Part shown: one piece after another, positions 2,385-30,554 of the stretch
Position numbering within the stretch: the first letter of the stretch is position 1
How the letters are laid out: each line of letters starts with the position of its first letter
Assembly: GCA_964255285.1 (NCBI GenBank)
Contig: CAXUUL010000091.1
Location: 1-33,785 of the forward strand
Direction of reading: 5' to 3'
DNA: 33,785 nt
DNA from: Ionaspis alba
Taxonomy: Eukaryota
The notes under the pieces: model-generated
Database searches by the model: none
What the model saw: only the letters and a program-made list of their open reading frames with translations
Told to the model about the DNA's origin: nothing
Translations under genes and position numbers: made by a program

Positions 2385-3831
2385 GGGAAAAGTGACAAGA
2401 GGTTATGTGGATCTGTGAATGGGGTCGGAGTATGGGGACATTTGGTCCTTTGGAGTGCAGGAATGGGAATTTGGAGGATGGATTGCTGGAGATTGAGTGC
2501 TGGAGACAAGTCGAGTGAGGAATACAGAAGCACAGCAGATTCTCAGGCTTAACGTCCGAGCAGAGTGATGCTAGACTGCCCACTCGCAGCTACAGTCTCC
2601 CTACTCTTTTGTCAGGCAGAGCTTGACATGCTTTGGGTCATGTCTATTGTGCAGAATAGATAGAGGAATTCTTTTCACGATTCCATGCTTTGCACACATG
2701 TGATAGACATCTTTGCATCCGACCATATGGTTCCATCGCACGTGTGTGGAAGCATAGGCTACATAATCGAGCACTACAGTACCACATCAGAGTCTTGATA
2801 CTCTAGTATAGTACTGCTACAAACAGCGTTCTTGTTCTTCCAGTCGGCTGGGAATAGTTTTACGCTTATTCGAAGCATTTCAATATGTCACTTCGTGGAT
2901 GTGTTATAAACTGTGTTGGCTTTCATGTCGCAGCGCCAGATAGTCGTTTGTTCTCAATGTATTAGAAGGACATTATTGGGTGAGGTTGCGCTTATTGTGT
3001 ATTGTTGTGAATCAAGAAACTCGCATCCGAGTCATTTGAGCTTATACCTTTCAGTCTCCTGATGTAAGGCAGGGAGCATTGCCATTCATTCTTGTACTAG
3101 TACAGTTGTCGTCGACCGAAGACTCGAGGAAATATCTGCGAGGAGAGGCAGCAACTGCTTCGCATTCGCTGGGCGGAGAGAGCCTTTGTTGTTTGACTCG
3201 TTTGCACTGGATTCATTCTCTCAGCCGCACAAAAGCTTCACGACACAAATGATGGATATGCATGATGATTTCTCATCGAGTACATGCTTGAGCTAAGCTT
3301 CAGGCATGACCATACTTTGAGTGGCTAAGCAAGTGTTTGTGGTAATTATCCTAGAGTTGAAAATGAGTGTTTCTTTGAATGTCGTGCTTGTCCTGTTCAT
3401 TGTTGCCTGTCATCAGCCACAACTTTCGGTATTTCGCGGACCTCGTGAGGATCTGCGTAAAGGTGCTTTGAGTCTGTGGACTTCGATTGCTTTGCTTTAG
3501 CTGACAAGGCAATCGACCACCACCGACACAAACCGCGGCTGAATCAATGGTGGCTGAACGCCTCCTGAGTGCGCCGCAGCCTTGCGCTGCTATGGGTACT
3601 ATTCTGGAAGCTAACATCTTATCTCATTGGTTTCTGCATACATTAGTCGACTCTTCCTTTTTTTCTCACCCCCCCTGCATTTGATCTTTGGGTGCCCTCC
3701 AAGATCTCCTTTTGCAAGACCGCGCAGACGAGGCTGACAGCTGGAGCTGCACATACTCGACACCATGAGCTTCTTAAAGCCAAGCATTTCCTGGGCATTC
3801 TTCCCTTTGCTTTTCCATATGTAAACCCAAA

Positions 3832-6243
3832 ATGCCTCATCAGACTGTTCGCCTGCGAAACCTACCCGCCAAAACCGTGATTGCAGATGTCCACAACTTC
3901 TTGATCGACAAGAACATTATCACCACTCATGCACAAGCGAGCGTCGGGCCAATCTGTGATCAGGCTGAATCGGCTCTGAAGCAAACAACTGTGTCTCTAT
4001 TGGTTCATCCGGATTATTACAGCCAGGTGCTTGCTTTGCCAGAGGCAAGACGTAACTTTACGTGCCAAGATGGCTTTGGAGCTGATCCAGCAAGAAGCTC
4101 TGTCATCGACATTGATAACCACTTCTTCGACCTGACGACCATTCATTCGTCAAATAATCCTGCTACAGGCAAGCCAGATATCGAGTAAGTTCCTTGTAGA
4201 TCTTACCCATGCAGACCTTCTTCAGAGCTGTTGCTTGTCTATACATCCAATCAGCATTGTACATCTTTGGATCTTATCTGCTGTCGCTTGAAGATCACTC
4301 CACTAACCAGAGAACCAGCATTCTAGTCACCCATGGTCTTGCCGGTCATGCGTGGAACAGCTTCACCACTTGGATCGCATGGCGGATAGGCCAGTACAAG
4401 GAAGTCAACTGGCTACGCGATATACTCCCGAACCTGCTATCTGGCTATGCCCGTCCAGATGGGCAGCAAGGGATCTACGCAAGGATCATGACCTTCGGCT
4501 ACAACTCCAACATCTGGGTCAATGCTAGTCCTATCGCTAATTTCGATGATGCCGTCAATAACTTGATCGCTGGTTTGAATCGAGAGCGCCGTGTTGTAAG
4601 AAAGGTCCACCTGTCTAGCAGAACACAATCAGTAACAGCTGTATAGGATCCTGCCCGCCCGTTATTCTTTATCGCGCATAGCCTTGGGGGTATTGTTGCT
4701 AAGCAGGTCAGTATTGTCGGCTTGCTTCCTTTGACCACTTGATTGATCTCGGCATCAGACTATCATCTCAATGGTGAGCGAAACGATCGGTCAGAACCCT
4801 GCCCATTTTCGAAATCCTATCACAGGTTGCTTGTTCTTTGGTGTGCCTCACAAAGGTTCTGGCACTGCAGGGAAATTCTCACCGGTCCTTGAGGCGCTCG
4901 GAATCTTTTTTGATGTAGGAAGCAAGAATGTCAAGGCGTTAAAGAAAAATTCGGAGAGGCTCTCCGATATCGCTACGCAGTTCAGGTACATTAGACAAGA
5001 CTGCAACATTACTGTTGTTAGTTGTTATGAACTCAATCGGGACTTGAAGCAGATAGTGGGTCAGCTGTGGTTCCTTGCATCCCTATAGAATACTTACCGC
5101 TGTCGAAGGTTGTCCCCGAAGACTCTGCAGTCCTCCGCTATGATCGCAATTGTCCAGTCCCGATCGGCATCTACAAAAGCCATAGGGAAATGGTAAAGTT
5201 CGCCCAAAGCAGCGATCAAGGTTTGATCAACGCCGTCGATGTTATAGCCCATACCGCCAGGCGCGCACTAGCCTCCCTAAATCCAGACGTCTCTTCTCCG
5301 ATTGGTCCGGGGCCTGATCCAGTACTTCCTCGTCTCGCTCCCGGAGAAGAAGACCCATTTGCAAACCTTGGTCGATTCGATACAGTGTTTCTCGTCGATG
5401 ATTCTCTTTCCATGGCTGGTCCGGGATGGACTCTAGCCCGGAAGATCCTAGAACGCTCAACCGGAATTGCCATGCAGTATGACGACAATGGCATTGATAT
5501 CTACTTCCTCAATTCCAAGCACAACCAAACCCAAGTCACTTCCGACGCTTTAGTACGTCAGACCCTTGAACGCGTTACGCCTCAAGGTGGTACGCCACTA
5601 GGCCATAAGCTTCAAAGGCATCTGCAAGGCTACATTGACAAATTCATGGAGCAAGGTGGACGCCACAACCAAAACACAAAAGAACTCAACCTAATTGTGA
5701 TTGCGGATGGAAAGCCAGATGAAAAGTATGCCAATATTAAAAGAACGGTCGTCCGCGCTGCGAAGGACCTTGATGAGGAAAGGGCTTCGGATACTCAGAT
5801 TGCCATTCAGTTCTGCCTTATCGGCGATGATCAAAAAGCCGCGGAATTTTACAAGACTCTTGACGATGATATCGAGGCAGAACAGAATTTGCAACGAGAT
5901 GTAAGCTCTTCTATCTACCAGAACCTCGCTCTCGTAGTTCGACAATCCCCAAGTTCACAGTCTCAATTTGCATTGATGCATTCGCAACCTGCATGCGAGC
6001 TCTCCCCAACTCTTTCGTTGATTTCCATGCTGCTACATCAGCTAATCACTTGTCCTTTAGATCGTTGACTGGATTCAATGCCTCAACGAGCTCGACCTCG
6101 ACAACGACTTCTACATCAAACTCCTCACAGGTGCATGGAACAAGAACGAAGATGAAAGACCCTCTACTCATGACCAGGAAACCAGAGCAGGTGGTCGTTC
6201 ACAGTCGGATCCGACTGTGAACCCTAGGAATGGTACTTGGTAA
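3832..6243 (+). CDS. Uncharacterised 653-aa protein: RRM-like N-terminal module + SesB-like (DUF676/PGAP1-like) alpha/beta hydrolase + C-terminal von Willebrand factor A domain; 6 exons
   Basis: Exons 3832-4184, 4319-4595, 4647-4706, 4759-5055, 5109-5900, 6061-6243 (1962 nt, in frame; donors GTAAGT, GTAAGA, GTCAGT, GTGGGT, GTAAGC). Hydrolase motifs: DILVTHGLAGH, NWLRDILP, ARIMTFGYNS, RPLFFIAHSLGGIV (nucleophile elbow), CLFFGVPHKGS, IVVPEDSA, SHREMVKF. vWA motifs: DTVFLVDDSLSM (DxSxS), GIDIYFLN, GGTPLG, LIVIADG, IQFCLIGDD, RDIVDW. Confidence 0.85.
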
Positions 6244-6758
6244 GGAGGATAGGGAAGGGAGTTTTAGGCGTGGAGATCTCGTATGAAGAGACTTATGACT
6301 GTTAGCACTGGGTTTGGGAGTTGTAGAGGAAGTTCTTGTCTGATATCGTCCTCATCCTCAATATAGGCGGATATCTATACTTGTACTCCCTTTTTCGTTG
6401 GTTGTTCTGCGGAAAAGGTCATCTGATGAATAATTGGGTGGGAGTAAAATGAGTCATGTTCTGGGTGCAACTCTCTATTGATGATCATACGAGCCGTGTT
6501 CGTGGTTGGCATTTGGCTATTTGTCGGCATTGTTGTGCTAACCAATCTGGCTCCCATTGTCTACACCCGATCGTTCATAGTTCCGTCTTGTTATCTGTGA
6601 TCACAAACGGGGAAGCTCGGTCGGGAGCTTGCTATTTTGATAGTACTGTATGAAACCAAATCTATCTGGTGCACCTCGTGTCTTCCGGCCTACATTGTAT
6701 GCTCAGCTCTACATGACGACCACGCAAGCAGGTCATACGGGGAAGAATTGTTAACATC

Positions 6759-6968
6759 ATGTGATATTGATAGCAATCAACACCATCCAACACCAGCTAC
6801 ACTTTTGAGCGCANNNNNNNNNNNNNNNNNNNNNNNNNNNNNNNNNNNNNNNNNNNNNNNNNNNNNNNNNNNNNNNNNNNNNNNNNNNNNNNNNNNNNNN
6901 NNNNNNNNNNNNNATGTGATATTGATAGCAATCAACACCATCCAACACCAGCTACACTTTTGAGCGCA
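6759..6968. other. Scaffold gap (100 N, 6814-6913) with a 55-bp duplicated flank; assembly overlap
   Basis: 6759-6813 is identical to 6914-6968. Confidence 0.9.
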
Positions 6969-7121: not shown

Positions 7122-10100
7122 TCACTCCTTCAAAGGCGGCAACTCCCCATCCCACCTAACCTTCATCGTCGTCGGGAACGGGAAAAACGAACTCCCGTCC
7201 GCCGTCATATAAAGCGTATACTCGCCTGGAAAAACCGTCACCTTCTTGATCTCCCCCTGCGGTCCCGGCGCCCTGCGCAAATTCTCCAGCTTGCACACCG
7301 TCTTCAGCATAGTTGTCATGGCCAATTTGCTCATGTCGTAGCCGAGACATTGGTGTGGGCCGAGTCCGTAGTGGATGTAGGACTCGAGGTCTCGCTTCAG
7401 GTCGATGGTGTCGGGCTCGGGGAAGACCGACTTATCGCGAGAGGCGGTCACGAGATCGACCATGACGCGGTCGCCGGGTTTGAGGTCGAGGGTTTTAGAA
7501 CCGTCGGTGACGGTCGTGGCGGTTGCCACGTCCCGATAGAGACCGACGGAGGAGCGGAGGCGGGAGCCTTCGAGGAAGCTGGAAAGTGGATGTTAGAATC
7601 AAGTAATTGTTCGAGAGAATGATGGAACTTACTATCGCAGGATCAAGTCATCGGCTTCTTGCGTATCGAGCTTAGCCAATCGGTTGATCTCCTTGAGATG
7701 CGGCTTTCCTTCATCAGACAAATAGTAGTCCAAAGTCTGCGCAAAGATTTGCCCCTGGTTCGCCACCATGCCGCCAGCTGTCGGCAGGATCTGCGACCAT
7801 ACAATATCTCTGACGCCGAGACCGCTTTTCAGGAGCTGCGTGATCATGTGCGTACCATAGCTGGACAATGGTGTATGTCTGTGGAAGCGCTCGATTGCTT
7901 CGGCGATGAATCCTGATCTGCTGACAGGCTCGATTTTAGCCATCATCAGTTCGCCCAATTGTTGAGTGACCATGCGAGCGCCTTGGCGGAGCTGGAAGCT
8001 CTTGGTCACATCGGCGTCGTAGAAGATGCAGGTGAATACTAATGCCATGACCAAGTATAGTTCCTGCTCCGTGTAAATTCCGTAAGGATGGTCCTTTGTC
8101 TTGAGTGGCAGTGAAAAGACTTCAGCCGCGAAGTGTGCTTGAGCGAGATTGCCCACATCGCGGACGATGTCGACCTGGTTGACTCCACCCAGCTTATTCG
8201 AATGCTCGTGGAGGAGTTGGAGAGTGATCTTTTCGTAGAAGGTCTTAATCTCGTTATGCCACTTCTCACGGTACAGGGCTCCGACCATCCGGTCACGCGA
8301 CTCGTTATGCACAACGTCGTCTCCGGAAAGGGCGAAGTCTGCGCCATAGAGCTTGCCGGAATTGTACATGATGTGGGTGATGGACTCGCCCCATATCACC
8401 TTGAAGTCTTTCTTGTTCGTCAGGATATCCTTGCCGGTTTTGTAAGATGTAATCGGAATCAAGTCCTTGGTGCGTTTAGGCGGGTCGAAGTCATAGTGGT
8501 GATCGTAGTTTAGATGCTCGAGTATGTCCTTGTTCTCTGGTGGAATGACCAGTGGAAAGTGGGCATAAACCGAGTTCTGTTTGAAGTGCTTGGGAAATGC
8601 TTGGAGGATGAGTTTGTAGAAGACATGACCTTGGTCGACGGATAGATCAAAGCTTGCCTCTTTGAAGCCCCAGCTTGTCAAGTTCTTCGGAGTATAGTCA
8701 GTAGTATAGTATCGGTCTCCACGTACCAGTGCTACGGCGTCAGAGAGTACTGCACGAGATACGGTATAGGAAGGACAGAGGCCACTGCCAGGTGTCATTG
8801 GTTTCTTGCCTTCCTCAACTACCAGACCAGGATACAGTTCGACAAGATCAGGAGTATCGTATAGATGTCTCAATTGATCAGCAACCTGTTTGTTCGAGTT
8901 GATCTCCTCGAATGTTTCGTGTTTCTTCAAGCCAAAGAATGCTCGGAATTCATTCAAGGTGGCGAGATTCCACGATCGAGCCTGAATGATGCCGAGTATC
9001 TCAACGGATCGAAGCACCTGCGGCACTCTGTTGGCGCCAAATGAACCCGCGACATCCTCGATGCTCTCTGTGAGAATCTTGACCATCGCATCGTCGTCCA
9101 GTTCCCCATTCTCACCACGCTTTATGTTGGCGAAATAACGTTGTTGTGGATCGACAGGGACGCTGCTCTCCCACTCCTTTAGGCCTTGGAGCAGTTCGTC
9201 CTTAGACATCTGGGCAGGATCTTTCTTGAAAAGCCTTCGATACTCGTCCTGAGTCCACTGATCATCGCGTTCGGAAATCGCTGCATGCCACCGGTAGACC
9301 AGGTTGAATTCAGCAGAAACCTGGTTACCAATACCTGACGCAGCATTTCCACCAAAGGAGGCCTTATTCTCTTCGACACGAGGGTCCAGGTCCCAAACGC
9401 TCTTCGTTCTATTGATGTTGAGGATGGTTCGAACATAGTCCTTGAGAATGCAGTTGACATATAAGCCACACGTGATAAGGCGACCAGTCTGGAAGAGATC
9501 GTTGTCGTATTTCTTGAGCTTCTCTGGAGCGCCATCTTGAGGCTTTGTGAATCTTCCGTTCTCATTGATGAGGGCAAGCTTCTCGACGACGTGATTGTGA
9601 AAGCGATTGAACATGATGAGCATCACTCCGACTCCAGGAGGAAATCCAAGGAGGCGCTTTTCGGAGAAACAGTCCGCCTTGATCTTACCATCTTCGAAAG
9701 TGCGCATATGGTCTTGCTCTTCTTGGTTACTCCCATAAAGAGGAGCAAGATCGAGGTAGGACGAAGTCAGCGAAATGTTGAAATTCTTGTGATCCGTGCG
9801 GAAGAGATCTAGAAGATGTCAGAGTCAAAGTCCGGGCCCCCAAAGCATTTCTCAGAACCTACCGTGGATAATTATCGAAGCAAGGTAGAAAAGCATGCTC
9901 GAGATCTTATTCGGGTGAGGCACAAACTCTTTACGAGCCATAACGCTGTCGAACAAGGTCCCCGGATCGGGTAGAGCAGCACGCTGGGTCGTCTGCGGTC
10001 GGACACTGCGAGCATAAGGCGTCCCTGCAGCTCCAAGCTGGGGAAACAAGATATTCTAGAACAGATTAGTCTCCGTAGTAGAGGGATTTCGACTCGCTCC

Positions 10101-26483: not shown

Positions 26484-29400
26484 ATGGATTCTCGACATCC
26501 AGCACCGCATCCTTTCTCTCGACCGCACTCACAATCGCAGTCGCAAGTTCATACTCTATCCAACGAGACACGATTCGGACCTATCCCTCCCCCGCCATAT
26601 CATTCTCAGTCTTCAGTTTTGCGACAAGATCCTCCACCCCGCATCGATCCATTTCTTCCTCGAAGACCCACCCACGATACCTTTGCTACCACTACAACCC
26701 GTCCGGATAACGGTTCATCGTATGGATTTCCTCAAGGACCGAGCATCCCACCCAGCCTCTTTGCACCAACGATCAGCTCAGATTCGAACGATGGAGGCAT
26801 GCGACGCGGAAGCTATGGATCGAATTTGGCATACACCCATACGGCGAGGGAGGAACAAGACGTAAGGAAAGGCAGCGGTACGTTGATCTCTCAGCAGATT
26901 CAGGTTTTGCTTGATTCTATATCCCCTTTGGCTTGTGCGCTGCACTTGTCTCCTGGTGTGCTCGTACCTCTCTGGCTCTCCCACTTTCGCAAACCTCTAC
27001 CGGGGAGATTCTATCTTTACAAAAGCACCTAAGGACGGTGAAGGAGAGGCTCGAGTCAAACGAACAATCTAGAGATATTCTGGGTACCTTTGGATAAGTA
27101 ATCCTTGATTTTCCGATTGAGTGACCCAACCGTGACGACAGACTCCTCAAGAATCCAGAACTTGGGTTTGTGACAAGCAGTGGTACTGGAATGGACCAAC
27201 GAATGCATAAGTTGCGGCAACAGAGCGGCTTCAACGATTTACAGTCCTTCTCATTCGATTTTTCTCGTACTGGCCAACTGGTCCTTTTCCCGCAATGGAC
27301 ATGAAATGCGCACGGCCATAACCGCAAGATGCGCCACGGGGATCCCCGCATCTGCTACCCCTGCTCCACGCTAACGATCGCTCCGTCCCGTGTCCGAGTT
27401 TGTAAATTGTACAAACATTCGTCACTCAACCGACACTGACGTGCCTTTACTCCAGTCGCAGACGCGGGTCATCCTATCCAACGGCCTCCACCACCACCAC
27501 CATCATTGCTGTCCGACGCGTCGGCTACCAGGCCTCGAAATGGCTACTCTGATAAGTCTTCGCCCTCACTGAACGGGGCGACGACCGCCACCATGTACCG
27601 AGGTGGGTTGATTTGATAACTCCCTAAGGAGGCACTTTCAGACCTCTCAGATCAACGATCCACGACATCTATCAATCTTATATTGCTCTGAGTTAAAGTT
27701 GCTCTGCATTACAAGTTGTTTCTGCCGTCAGACCTATGTTTAGTGATTGAAACGCGCTGACCATGCTGGCTTCAATCTAGGTACCCTCAACCGTTCTCCA
27801 CCGCCACCTCCTCCGTTCAGCGCGCGACAAATGCTGCCTCCAACTTCTCCACAATACACTCATTCTCAATATGCCCCCTTTCCGTCAGTCGCTCGTGGTG
27901 CGCCAGTGCCGTCACCGTATGCACGCGAAAGCCAAGCGACGTCAACACATCGTCCTGGTAGTAGCATGTCAATATCCTCCATGTTGGGTACTAATCCTGA
28001 AGACAAACCGCGAGAGCCCGCATCAGTTCATCGGACAAACGGATTTGGTTCCTCTTCAGCGGCGCCGATGACGGCTCCATTACCTACCTCTGCACCCTCA
28101 CCCACTAGACCGGAATTTGGAACTGGCCAGCAGGTATACAGGGCACAAACCCCAGATGCATACAAGAACCATAGGGCTGGGCATACTCGCCCCTCTCGCG
28201 CCTATTCCGGCGGCCCGCCACCACGGCCATTCTCCGGTTCTCAAGCAAGCTCTCCAGATGTCTTTCGGTTCGGTCCTCCTCTGAATGCATTCAACAATCA
28301 GCCATCGTCCCAATTCTCCAATACCCAAGAAAAATCGCCATATCTCGAAGATTCAGCCATGTCACAAGCGAGGCGCTCAAGTCTCAACAATCTGGAGCAG
28401 TTGACAAACTATCGCCAGACTGGATTTCGAACACCACCGGTTGAACCTGGAAACAACCATGATTCGAACCAGAGGTACCCAAGACCAGTGAATGAAGAGC
28501 TACTTGACCAAAGACTGCGACACGAATCTATGAATAAGGACGAACCAATACTTAGACACAAGCCCAATAGTGCCAGTGTCCCTACCTTCTACGAGATTGA
28601 TCGTCGCGCACCCGGACCAGCTCAAAATCAGAGTCCAACGAACGCAAGACCTGATCATGCTGGCGAATCAAGCGGTACCAACTATCCGTTCTTATCCAGA
28701 TCGATCCGCCACGACCAACGCACTGATGATCGGCCGCAAAATGGAAGCCAAAATGGCACCGAGCCCAAGAATGAGTATCCTTACAAAGCTCGGCCAGGTA
28801 CTATTCCGTCTGCCCAAACGACGGAACCTTGGAAACGTCCAAACGACAGTCCATACACTGGGCTGAATCAAGCTTATCAAGATGCAAGACATGTTCCAAT
28901 TCATCCTGTCGACGAATTGAGGCAACAGGCGATGCGTGATTCGCCTTCCATTTCGACGCCGACCGAGAGAAGCCAGCCTGCATTAGTTGCAGATCGAATA
29001 GACCAACAAATGGGACAAATGGACGAACCGCAGCTTCAAAAGAATTTGCTTGGTCTTATGGTGGAGAACAACAAACGCAGCGGCCGAGTTTCTCCCCTTC
29101 CTCAAGCTGTCCAAGGTGCACAAGGTCGAACGAGAGGTCCAGCTAGTGAGCCGGGTATCAAGAATGAGTTTGCGAGAATGTTCTCCGGAATCGGAAGTGG
29201 TGTCGGAAGTGCAATGTCCACCCCAGTTCCACAAGAGTTAGGTGCATCTATCTCGTTTCCGTCGAGTCCTACTAGGACGGAAGAAGTTGAAAGACGAACT
29301 CCTTTCAGTGGGCGCAATGATCTTGTGGAAAACATAAAGCCTCGAGTGACGTCCCGCGGTGGTAGACGAAGTCGGAAGATGAAAGATGAAGAGTCGCGGA

Positions 29401-30554
29401 TCGATGTTGGTAATGTTAGTGGGCAGGGTCTTACTCGATCTTTCAGTGCGAGAGGTGCGAAAAGGAGTCGACAAAGTTACAACATCTCCAATCATGTGTA
29501 GGTGGATCGTTTTTTCAAGCGACCTGTAAATCTCAATGCTGACTTCATTAGCCATAATCATCATGCCGACGCCCTGACTACATCTAGCACACCCTTCTCG
29601 ATGACAACAATAGGAAAGCGAATATTCACCCCGAACCAAGCTCTTGTCACAGGTGTGCCACAATCATCAACACCGCACCATCATCACCACCATCACCATC
29701 ACCATCATCATCATCAAAACCAACTTGCAACCAAGGCGCACGCCAGCCCTCCAATCAAGACACGTCAGCCTTCCATTACTGTGTCTAGTAAAGCTGTATT
29801 GGACAGTGTGAAGCATCTTCCACGCCATCATCTGGGCTCGACTCTCTACGCTCCAGTACTCAGCACTCCGTCCCATACAGCATCCCACGAGCATTCCAAA
29901 TTCGGCTACGTCAGCACACCGAAACCTATCCCCCAATTTGATGGTCAAGAGAACTGCACATTCACCATTCGCGTTCCACGAGTGTGTTTACAGAGACGCG
30001 AGCGCGAAGAAATCTGCCAGCGACGAGCTCTGTGGGGCTCGGGTGTGTATACTGACGATTCGGATCCGATCGCAGTAGCCATCCACAGTGGCTGGATCCG
30101 AGGCGAGTGGGGGGATGATGTCGATATCTCTATGCTCGATCTTGCGGGGAGCCCTGACGATGCTTCGACCAAGAAAGCAGATAGTAGTGAGAATCCAATT
30201 GAAGTGGCGGATACCATGGACGCCCCGCCTTTGACACCCGTTGTTCCCCCCAGCGATCGAGACCTCCACATCACGCTCCTCATTCTGCCTGCCCTACAAA
30301 ACTACGCCTCGCTTGTGCAGCATGGTATCAGATCCCGGCCATGGACAAACGGTCACGACGGACTAAGTTTCATGATCGAGAAGATCAGTTGGGTCGATGA
30401 GGGAGCTGCACGGGGCGAGGAGAGGGGTGGAGAGGCGAGGAGGAAGAGGTTGAGGATGCTGATGACGGCTGGGGATTTGAGAGTGGGACCGGCGATGAAG
30501 ATGGGGTTTGGAACGAGCGGGTCGGGCTTGAAGGCTGCGGTTGTGGCTGCTTAG
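26484..30554 (+). CDS. rxt3: Rxt3 domain protein (Rpd3L/Sin3 histone deacetylase complex subunit), 4 exons, ~1086 aa
   Basis: Exons 26484-26877, 27456 (or 27462)-27602, 27781-29497, 29552-30554, in frame. C-terminal Rxt3 domain: RHHLGSTLY, ENCTFTIRVP, RALWGSGVYTDDSDPIAVAIHSGWI, DLHITLLILPALQNY, HDGLSF. Conserved short motifs SSMSISSML and RVSPLPQAVQG...IKNEFARMFSGIGSG. The two 5' exons are less certain than the 3' part. Confidence 0.85.
29676..29714 (+). repeat. (CAY)13 trinucleotide repeat encoding 13 consecutive His in Rxt3
   Basis: cac cat cat cac cac cat cac cat cac cat cat cat cat, in frame, just before the Rxt3 domain. Confidence 0.9.

Follow-up and report, generated by a model that had tools for sequence, protein, structure and literature searches.

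We report that a six-exon gene of Ionaspis alba (Eukaryota) is predicted to encode a protein of 653 amino acids (aa) that joins a domain of RNA recognition motif (RRM) fold, an alpha/beta-hydrolase, and a domain of the von Willebrand factor A (vWA) type with a complete metal ion-dependent adhesion site (MIDAS). The gene lies at positions 3832–6243 on the forward strand of the stretch of DNA that was analyzed, hereafter the window (33,785 nucleotides; NCBI GenBank assembly GCA_964255285.1, contig CAXUUL010000091.1, positions 1 to 33,785). On the sequence evidence, its product belongs, as a short form, to a family of Pezizomycotina that is old, patchily distributed, and of single origin, with RRM-fold, alpha/beta-fold, and vWA domains as its core, and its hydrolase is a homologue of the DUF676/SesB-like domains at the N-termini of fungal NACHT/NB-ARC proteins, i.e., of NLRs, the NOD-like receptors (NOD, nucleotide-binding oligomerization domain). 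We hold this anatomy and family assignment with high confidence. Catalysis, ligand binding by the vWA domain, their coupling, and the biological setting are what we infer, and both the mechanism and the setting are put forward tentatively, as somewhat short of an even chance. The explanation that we consider best overall, which combines the anatomy and the family with a vWA-switched enzyme acting in stress, defense, or cell death, seems to us evenly poised between right and wrong.

Gene structure and domain anatomy

The exons were derived from direct reading of positions 3500–6600 together with a stop-to-stop list of open reading frames (ORFs), in which the frames break at every intron. The predicted gene comprises the following features.

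3832–4184, + strand: exon 1, aa 1–118, ending in phase 2; start codon ATG at 3832–3834; RRM-fold domain at about 3841–4131 (aa 4–100), then the first hydrolase residues
4185–4318, + strand: intron 1, GTAAGT..CAG
4319–4595, + strand: exon 2, aa 118–210; N-terminal part of the hydrolase with VTHGLAGH (HG oxyanion motif), WLRDILP, and RIMTFGY
4596–4646, + strand: intron 2, GTAAGA..TAG
4647–4706, + strand: exon 3, aa 211–230; nucleophile elbow AHSLGG, with the Ser222 codon AGC at 4680–4682
4707–4758, + strand: intron 3, GTCAGT..CAG
4759–5055, + strand: exon 4, aa 231–329; central hydrolase with FFGVPHKGS and a helical insertion
5056–5108, + strand: intron 4, GTGGGT..AAG, the weakest splice signals of the five
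5109–5900, + strand: exon 5, aa 330–593, 264 codons; C-terminal part of the hydrolase, Pro/Gly linker at 5244–5363, vWA core from 5364
5121–5123 and 5181–5183, + strand: catalytic codons in exon 5, Asp334 (GAC) and His354 (CAT)
5397–5411, 5592–5594, and 5706–5708, + strand: MIDAS codons in exon 5, D426–S430, T491, and D529
5901–6060, + strand: intron 5, GTAAGC..TAG
6061–6243, + strand: exon 6, aa 594–653, stop codon TAA at 6241–6243; last vWA strand and helix (to about 6156), then a low-complexity tail

Joined by script, the six exons give 1962 nt and 653 codons with a single terminal stop, and the five introns are all of the GT..AG type. The spliceable 653-aa gene described in the initial annotation therefore stands, and every motif listed there was found in its place in the joined translation. 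Splicing of intron 4 is required, because read-through meets a stop at 5086–5088. Homologue alignments cross all five junctions, including 5055/5109, without insertion or deletion, and those of exon 2 are gap-free against P0107, P0009, and P0019. When 15 family proteins were compared with the window by tblastn, matches were confined to these exons, extending over 4317–4727 in the exon 2 region and, for P0019, over 6061–6216 in exon 6, whose product has conserved counterparts in P0019, P0023, and P0001, the last of these a vWA-only protein. The highest Kyte–Doolittle score over 19 residues is 1.33, which indicates that the protein has no membrane segment and is soluble, and we predict a cytosolic, soluble product.

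Nine longer relatives, described below, begin with additional N-terminal parts of ~300 aa, for which no tblastn match was obtained anywhere in the window. Position 3832 is thus a plausible true start, and an upstream caspase-like exon in the window could be ruled out. At the other end of the protein, the database models P0009, P0058, P0063, P0029, P0083, P0072, P0087, P0042, P0051, P0027, and P0037 break off at a conserved DRDV or just beyond it and carry unrelated residues from there on; in these models translation evidently ran on into the last intron, so that the final vWA strand and helix, encoded here by exon 6, are missing.

Since Asp334, His354, the linker, and the vWA core share one uninterrupted exon, the hydrolase–vWA fusion is independent of the splice prediction. 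We take the predicted gene to be intact and this fusion to be real. It is highly improbable that we are looking at an artefact or pseudogene, i.e., at two genes or a decaying copy from which the 653-aa protein is never made: such a reading could draw on the weak signals of intron 4 and on the weak single-exon Pfam matches, but the 653-codon frame is intact, the junctions are gap-free against homologues, the domain boundary falls inside one exon, and every catalytic and MIDAS residue is kept. Several environmental homologues (e.g., P0029, P0023, and P0072) are moreover filed as single proteins of 916–967 residues that carry all domains.

The RRM-like N-terminus proposed initially was borne out by structure prediction. 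An AlphaFold2 (AF2) model of the exon 1 translation, built with 17 homologues, reached a mean predicted local distance difference test (pLDDT) score of 83.7 and displayed the order beta-alpha-beta-beta-alpha-beta. Compared with 48,161 PDB representatives using VIA-align, it returned RRMs for all 50 matches listed (Z 8.0–9.7), with root-mean-square deviations of ~2 Å over 72–78 residues. Foldseek matches of the same model were weak (E 0.02), with RRMs mixed with PII proteins and none at E ≤ 0.001, so that the fold call rests on VIA-align. At the level of sequence, matches to Pfam RRM_1 were obtained for 2 of 19 family members, the best with an E value of 0.002, and a hidden Markov model (HMM) of the domain built from the family covers aa 4–108 of the window protein. 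In the ribonucleoprotein motifs RNP1 and RNP2 of RRMs, aromatic residues of the consensus stack on RNA. Strands 1 (TVRLRNL) and 3 (TTVSLLV) of the window domain are non-aromatic at these positions, and RNA binding is for this reason doubtful.

The hydrolase spans aa 112–374. It carries an HG oxyanion motif (VTHGLAGH) and a GxSxG-type elbow (AHSLGG) with Ser222, together with Asp334 in VVPEDSA and His354 in KSHREM, and with this motif and triad it looks catalytically competent. Pfam matches on the 20-aa exon 3 (Hydrolase_4, PGAP1, and DUF676) have E values of 0.04–0.07; because single-exon matches are weak, our domain calls rest on family-level evidence. In an AF2 model of the homologue P0107 (pLDDT 77.4, predicted template modeling score 0.58), the linker is at pLDDT 30–37 and the vWA domain shows alternating strands and helices. 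With this model as the query, Foldseek ranked the vWA domain of CMG2 37th and returned E values between 1e-7 and 1e-5 for thioesterases, monoacylglycerol lipases, and carboxylesterases.

The vWA domain had been described as carrying an intact MIDAS, and all five metal-site residues are indeed in place (D426, S428, and S430 in DDSLS, T491 in GGTP, and D529 in IADG). The same five residues, DSSTD, are found in 142 of 155 relatives, including 120 of 128 vWA-only proteins and 22 of 27 hydrolase–vWA proteins. Exon 5 matches Pfam vWA-TerF-like (E 9e-4, 19.9 of 29.4 bits) and VWA (E 4e-3, 17.8 of 23.8 bits), and VWA matches 17 of the 19 family members at E ≤ 0.1. An exhaustive HMMER search with exon 5 against 1.84 billion representatives yielded 1451 matches at E ≤ 1e-3, 632 at E ≤ 1e-10, and 20 at E ≤ 1e-30, the best relative being 69% identical over the vWA domain only. 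No match at E ≤ 1 was obtained among PDB sequences. A word-index search of longer proteins, again with exon 5, yielded P0001 as the sole vWA relative, which reflects the limited sensitivity of that search, as the exhaustive one found many; the ESM Atlas returned only vWA clusters with scores of ~0.8, and we treat these as a lead only.

These relatives belong to a fungal vWA family that is widespread in Ascomycota and Basidiomycota, mostly as small stand-alone proteins under entries such as “VWFA domain-containing protein” or “hypothetical protein”. They resemble the window domain in their type, in the DSSTD MIDAS, and in the same last strand and helix, but unlike the window protein most have no hydrolase (130 of the 157 vWA-bearing proteins counted, the window protein included). 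The vWA domain sits at the C-terminus, with a median N-terminal extension of 96 aa and a median C-terminal extension of 35 aa, and just 4 of 130 vWA-only proteins have a C-terminal extension of at least 150 aa; in the window protein it is followed by a 30-aa tail. The N-termini ahead of the related vWA domains mostly have no Pfam domain, and otherwise carry DM9 repeats or caspase-like domains. In P0004 and P0005, DM9 repeats precede two copies of this same fungal vWA type. P0001, from Kwoniella, is an 821-aa vWA-only protein with a long low-complexity N-terminus, in which two short acidic, Leu/Ala/Ser-rich stretches at about residues 235–275, upstream of the vWA domain, may resemble ubiquitin-interaction motifs, as judged by eye.

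Kinship to NLR effectors and the three-domain family

The relation of the hydrolase to NLR effectors was established with the homologue P0009 and the family profile as queries, rather than with the window protein. When compared with proteins of 959–2735 residues, the hydrolase region of P0009 gave 14 matches at E ≤ 1e-3 (best E 4.3e-24), with 26–31% identity over 56–92% of the region (at least 80% in 13 of the 14). Thirteen of these proteins list a Pfam family of STAND (signal transduction ATPases with numerous domains) NTPases, along with ANK or TPR repeats, and the remaining one lists DUF676 only. From their accessions, we take the NTPase families to be NB-ARC, NACHT, NPHP3_N-type, and AAA_16, in agreement with the names at the source. 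One of the 13, P0164 (Amycolatopsis, 989 aa), is a bacterial STAND/TPR protein with a weak match (E 4e-4). The family profile retrieved 125 proteins; after a few three-domain members, these were mostly NLR-type proteins, reached at E values down to 4e-41 and including some named “LipA and NB-ARC domain protein”, and stand-alone DUF676 proteins of 250–360 aa. The SesB-like character first proposed for this hydrolase is thus supported by homology to NACHT/NB-ARC-linked N-termini in both sequence and profile searches.

By “sesB-like”, Dyrka et al. (2014, PMC4986451) mean their own sesB HMM combined with those Pfam annotations of alpha/beta-hydrolases that lie N-terminal to a NOD, and they describe the sesB-like lipase domain as related to the lipase of human SERAC1. 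By homology, the window hydrolase falls under this merged operational definition; the linkage to a NOD, which is also part of it, is lacking. No NACHT/NB-ARC Pfam match was found on any window exon and no NOD in family members, and the C-terminus carries the vWA domain and tail in place of ANK, TPR, or WD40 repeats. The NOD-less arrangement that had been proposed is therefore confirmed, with the hydrolase running straight into the linker and the vWA domain. Taken together, the window hydrolase and those of SesB-like, DUF676/Abhydrolase_6-type NLR proteins are ~30% identical over ~90% of the domain, have the HG motif, the elbow, and the His in common, and are both related to small stand-alone versions. 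The window gene differs from these proteins in having neither NACHT/NB-ARC nor repeats, and in placing an RRM-fold domain before the hydrolase and a vWA domain after it.

PGAP1/Bst1 and SERAC1 share the alpha/beta-hydrolase fold and a GxSxG elbow with the window protein. The Pfam PGAP1 match is limited to exon 3 (E 0.052) and to 1 of 19 family members (E 0.066), and the window protein has no membrane segment. Some NLR matches are automatically named “Protein SERAC1”, and these carry NLR-type domains or are short. By its PGAP1 match and the lack of a membrane segment, the window protein does not appear to be of the PGAP1/Bst1 or SERAC1 type.

The distribution of the three domains was then assessed by running domain HMMs built from the family over 284 fetched proteins and the query. 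RRM-fold, hydrolase, and vWA domains occurred together in 19 proteins including the query, hydrolase and vWA in 8 proteins that are all N-terminally cut fragments, the hydrolase by itself in 128, and the vWA domain by itself in 130. The 18 database proteins with all three domains have them in identical order, and all are unnamed or “hypothetical”. In pairwise phmmer comparisons, the spliced protein aligned in a single segment, which begins at residue 4 or 5 and ends at 585–598, with P0107 (607 aa), P0063 (746 aa), P0029 (942 aa), P0023 (916 aa), P0072 (967 aa), and P0083 (890 aa). The initial annotation had read the N-terminal half as an NLR-type module of RRM-like and SesB-like domains. This is not upheld: the RRM-fold domain occurs only alongside hydrolase and vWA, being found in 0 of 128 hydrolase-only proteins, and in NLR-type proteins the median start of the hydrolase is residue 42, with only 8 of 78 starting at residue 100 or beyond.

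We next evaluated the phylogeny of the hydrolase. Of 155 domains, 26 were set aside as too partial, and trees were built from the remaining 129, which span 190 HMM positions or more. A single branch separated the 20 vWA-fused hydrolases, without exception, from the 109 NLR-type or stand-alone ones, with a FastTree Shimodaira–Hasegawa (SH)-like support of 97 and an IQ-TREE (LG+G4) SH approximate likelihood ratio test (SH-aLRT) support of 98. The comparison with NLR N-termini that had been called for thus gave a double answer, in that the two sets are homologous and the vWA-fused set nevertheless stands apart. One old fusion is the simplest reading of this clade, and the view that the vWA domain recently took the place of a NOD is not supported.

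Named members of the family come from Geoglossomycetes (Trichoglossum, Glutinoglossum, and Geoglossum), Xylographa, Chaenotheca, and Podospora australis, and the rest from environmental assemblies; Glutinoglossum americanum holds two paralogues, P0166 and P0009. Two family patterns run against 185,579 prokaryote genomes gave 138 pattern matches, none of which was confirmed by tblastn. In the full-text literature searched, which excludes supplements and subscription journals, we found no description of a fungal hydrolase–vWA or RRM–hydrolase–vWA protein, and the sole mention of an NLR-linked vWA domain in fungi was a figure legend that includes TROVE and vWA among abbreviations for Podospora anserina NLR domains. 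The architecture, initially presented as undescribed, is so within that literature; it is not peculiar to this gene, as it recurs in the 18 database proteins.

Catalytic residues and a possible mode of action

The nucleophile Ser is kept in nearly all hydrolases outside the family (84 of 85 NLR-type, 30 of 30 stand-alone, and 7 of 7 mid-length proteins), whereas the separate vWA-fused clade often lacks it: it is present in 8 of 14 short vWA-fused members and in 1 of 9 caspase-bearing long forms. Ser, Asp, and His are found together at the aligned columns in 5 of 23 family members, the window protein among them, and its nearest relatives (P0009, P0107, P0166, and P0006) keep all three along with the HG motif. 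These patterns suggest that the vWA metal site is a constant of the family and that hydrolase catalysis is optional, its residues being retained in the sub-branch of the window protein. A vWA-gated lipase effector, the role proposed at the outset, is correspondingly weakened as the conserved job of the family, since the hydrolase is predicted to be dead in most relatives.

The nine long forms (P0029, P0023, P0072, P0083, P0087, P0042, P0051, P0027, and P0037) add an N-terminal caspase-like domain of ~300 aa, whose His and Cys motifs can be recognized in the alignment. Peptidase_C14 narrowly exceeds its cut-off for 2 of the 9, and Raptor_N matches 3 at E ≤ 0.1. The domain order is caspase-like, RRM-fold, hydrolase, vWA, and the elbow reads GHGxGG in 8 of the 9. 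Judged from these residues, the long forms seem to be a version of this chassis that pairs a protease with a pseudo-hydrolase.

MIDAS vWA domains use a divalent cation to hold an acidic residue of their partner. We propose that the MIDAS of the window protein would likewise engage a partner or target protein at an acidic side chain, again by way of a divalent cation, and that this contact would place or switch the tethered N-terminal enzyme. In the window protein this enzyme would be an esterase, lipase, or thioesterase; in the long forms it would be a caspase-like protease, with the dead hydrolase as its neighbor. The RRM-fold domain may serve as a family-specific adaptor packed next to the hydrolase, and the Pro/Gly linker as a flexible joint between hydrolase and vWA domain. 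As the hydrolase is akin to NLR effector domains, relatives bear a caspase-like domain, and the family is patchily spread, the setting is most likely stress, defense, or regulated cell death rather than core metabolism.

Several points weigh against this proposal. First, the nucleophile Ser is lost in 14 of 23 vWA-fused members, as compared with 1 of 122 hydrolases outside, and the conserved role of the alpha/beta fold may be non-catalytic, even in the window protein. Second, outside the family the Asp column shows little conservation, or the alignment there is itself poor. Third, the Pfam matches of the window exons are weak, with those to the vWA domain below gathering scores, and the three-domain structural model is that of P0107, which is 31–39% identical per exon to the window protein. 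Fourth, the hydrolase trees are unrooted, and their outside set was recruited by similarity to the RRM–hydrolase–vWA family. Finally, a Pfam scan of 19 large window ORFs revealed no partner, AAA+ ATPase, or NLR, and the assignment to defense or cell death amounts to guilt by association.

The first of these points leads to a different reading, namely that the three-domain core is a non-catalytic binding chassis, in which the intact triad would be a leftover and the protein would act as an adaptor, e.g., in protein turnover or a ribonucleoprotein-linked process. The loss of the nucleophile in 14 of 23 members while the MIDAS is almost invariant would fit such a scaffold, as would the restriction of the RRM-fold domain to the family and the possible ubiquitin-interaction-like stretches of the vWA-only relative P0001. 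The retention of Ser, Asp, His, and HG in the window protein and its four nearest relatives argues instead for purifying selection on catalysis in their sub-branch, and the absence of RNA-stacking aromatics from strands 1 and 3 makes RNA binding doubtful. We consider the scaffold decidedly unlikely.

Genomic neighborhood, bacterial parallel, and significance

Pfam annotation of the window ORFs confirmed that the gene has housekeeping neighbors, as the initial annotation had stated: these include a 6-phosphofructo-2-kinase, an ABCD transporter, a class-III aminotransferase, a tryptophan synthase, and CLN3. The gene itself sits between that 6-phosphofructo-2-kinase and the Ppo-type oxygenase gene listed below. 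Three further features of the window were noted.

6814–6913: a run of 100 N, ~570 bp 3′ of the stop codon, with the same ~55-base sequence on both sides (6759–6813 and 6914–6968); it resembles a scaffolding gap left where two contig ends overlap, and the gene is untouched
7122–9818, − strand: downstream neighbor, a fusion of animal haem peroxidase and cytochrome P450 by Pfam, which is the architecture of fungal oxylipin oxygenases of the Ppo/linoleate diol synthase type
27747–30554, + strand: open frames of 584 and 350 aa that abut at a single stop, the second with Rxt3 and LCCL and the first with no Pfam match; these probably belong to a single gene that has either a long, unannotated N-terminal part or an intron where the two frames meet

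The neighborhood bears on a further alternative, in which the protein is a housekeeping or metabolic enzyme, i.e., a lipid esterase or acyl-protein thioesterase that its vWA domain docks to a cellular structure, with no role in non-self recognition or death. Beside the neighboring genes, this would agree with the ordinary thioesterases, monoacylglycerol lipases, and carboxylesterases among the structural neighbors, with the wide occurrence of stand-alone vWA relatives in Ascomycota and Basidiomycota, and with the fact that no hallmark of an immune gene has been shown for the window gene. It is harder to reconcile with the nearest outside hydrolases, which are NLR N-termini and small DUF676 proteins and not PGAP1, and with the patchy, low-identity distribution of the family; the caspase-like domain and the dead hydrolases of relatives also make a poor fit. 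On balance, we regard a housekeeping enzyme as somewhat unlikely.

The proposed vWA-switched enzyme finds a parallel in bacteria. According to Kaur et al. (2020, eLife, PMC7159879), MoxR–vWA (VMAP) ternary conflict systems combine vWA proteins with variable effectors, a caspase-superfamily domain in these systems is always accompanied by a neighboring alpha/beta-hydrolase gene, and FxSxx-COOH peptides are linked to actinobacterial vWA–MoxR systems. The fungal long forms similarly put caspase-like, alpha/beta-hydrolase, and vWA domains together, in this case on one chain. The arrangement differs, however, in that the effectors described for the bacterial systems are C-terminal to the vWA domain, whereas those of the fungal family are N-terminal, and no MoxR AAA+ or VMAP/iSTAND component was found among the 19 large window ORFs scanned. 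The likeness is thematic, and the fungal family perhaps works alike without being a member of these systems. The Amycolatopsis protein P0164 mentioned above bears an FxSxx-COOH system name.

A broader version of our proposal is that the family represents a branch of innate immunity or regulated cell death in fungi that does without a NOD. A MIDAS vWA domain would sense or assemble, as NACHT/NB-ARC and repeats do in NLRs, and would drive interchangeable death effectors on the same chain, namely a live SesB-like serine hydrolase in the window gene and, in the long forms, a caspase-like protease with a dead hydrolase next to it. We consider this broader version unlikely as it stands. If true, the family would be a eukaryotic single-chain counterpart of the bacterial vWA-centered systems that pair caspases with alpha/beta-hydrolases.

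SesB-like hydrolases rank with the most frequent effector domains of ascomycete NLRs, at 13–14% in Wojciechowski et al. (2022, PMC9815663) and at ~20% of annotated NLR N-termini in Dyrka et al. (2014, PMC4986451). What substrate they act on and what part they play in cell death are questions that the family described here makes tractable: it presents the same kind of enzyme on a far smaller, NOD-free chain, joined to a simple and mutable metal-dependent binding site, and its natural dead-enzyme and caspase-bearing variants offer a handle on how the hydrolase acts and is switched. If the vWA domain is a sensor or assembly module, fungal immune-like repertoires that are counted by NOD alone would be incomplete. 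If it is not, a three-domain family that had no name is defined all the same, and many shortened database models are corrected.

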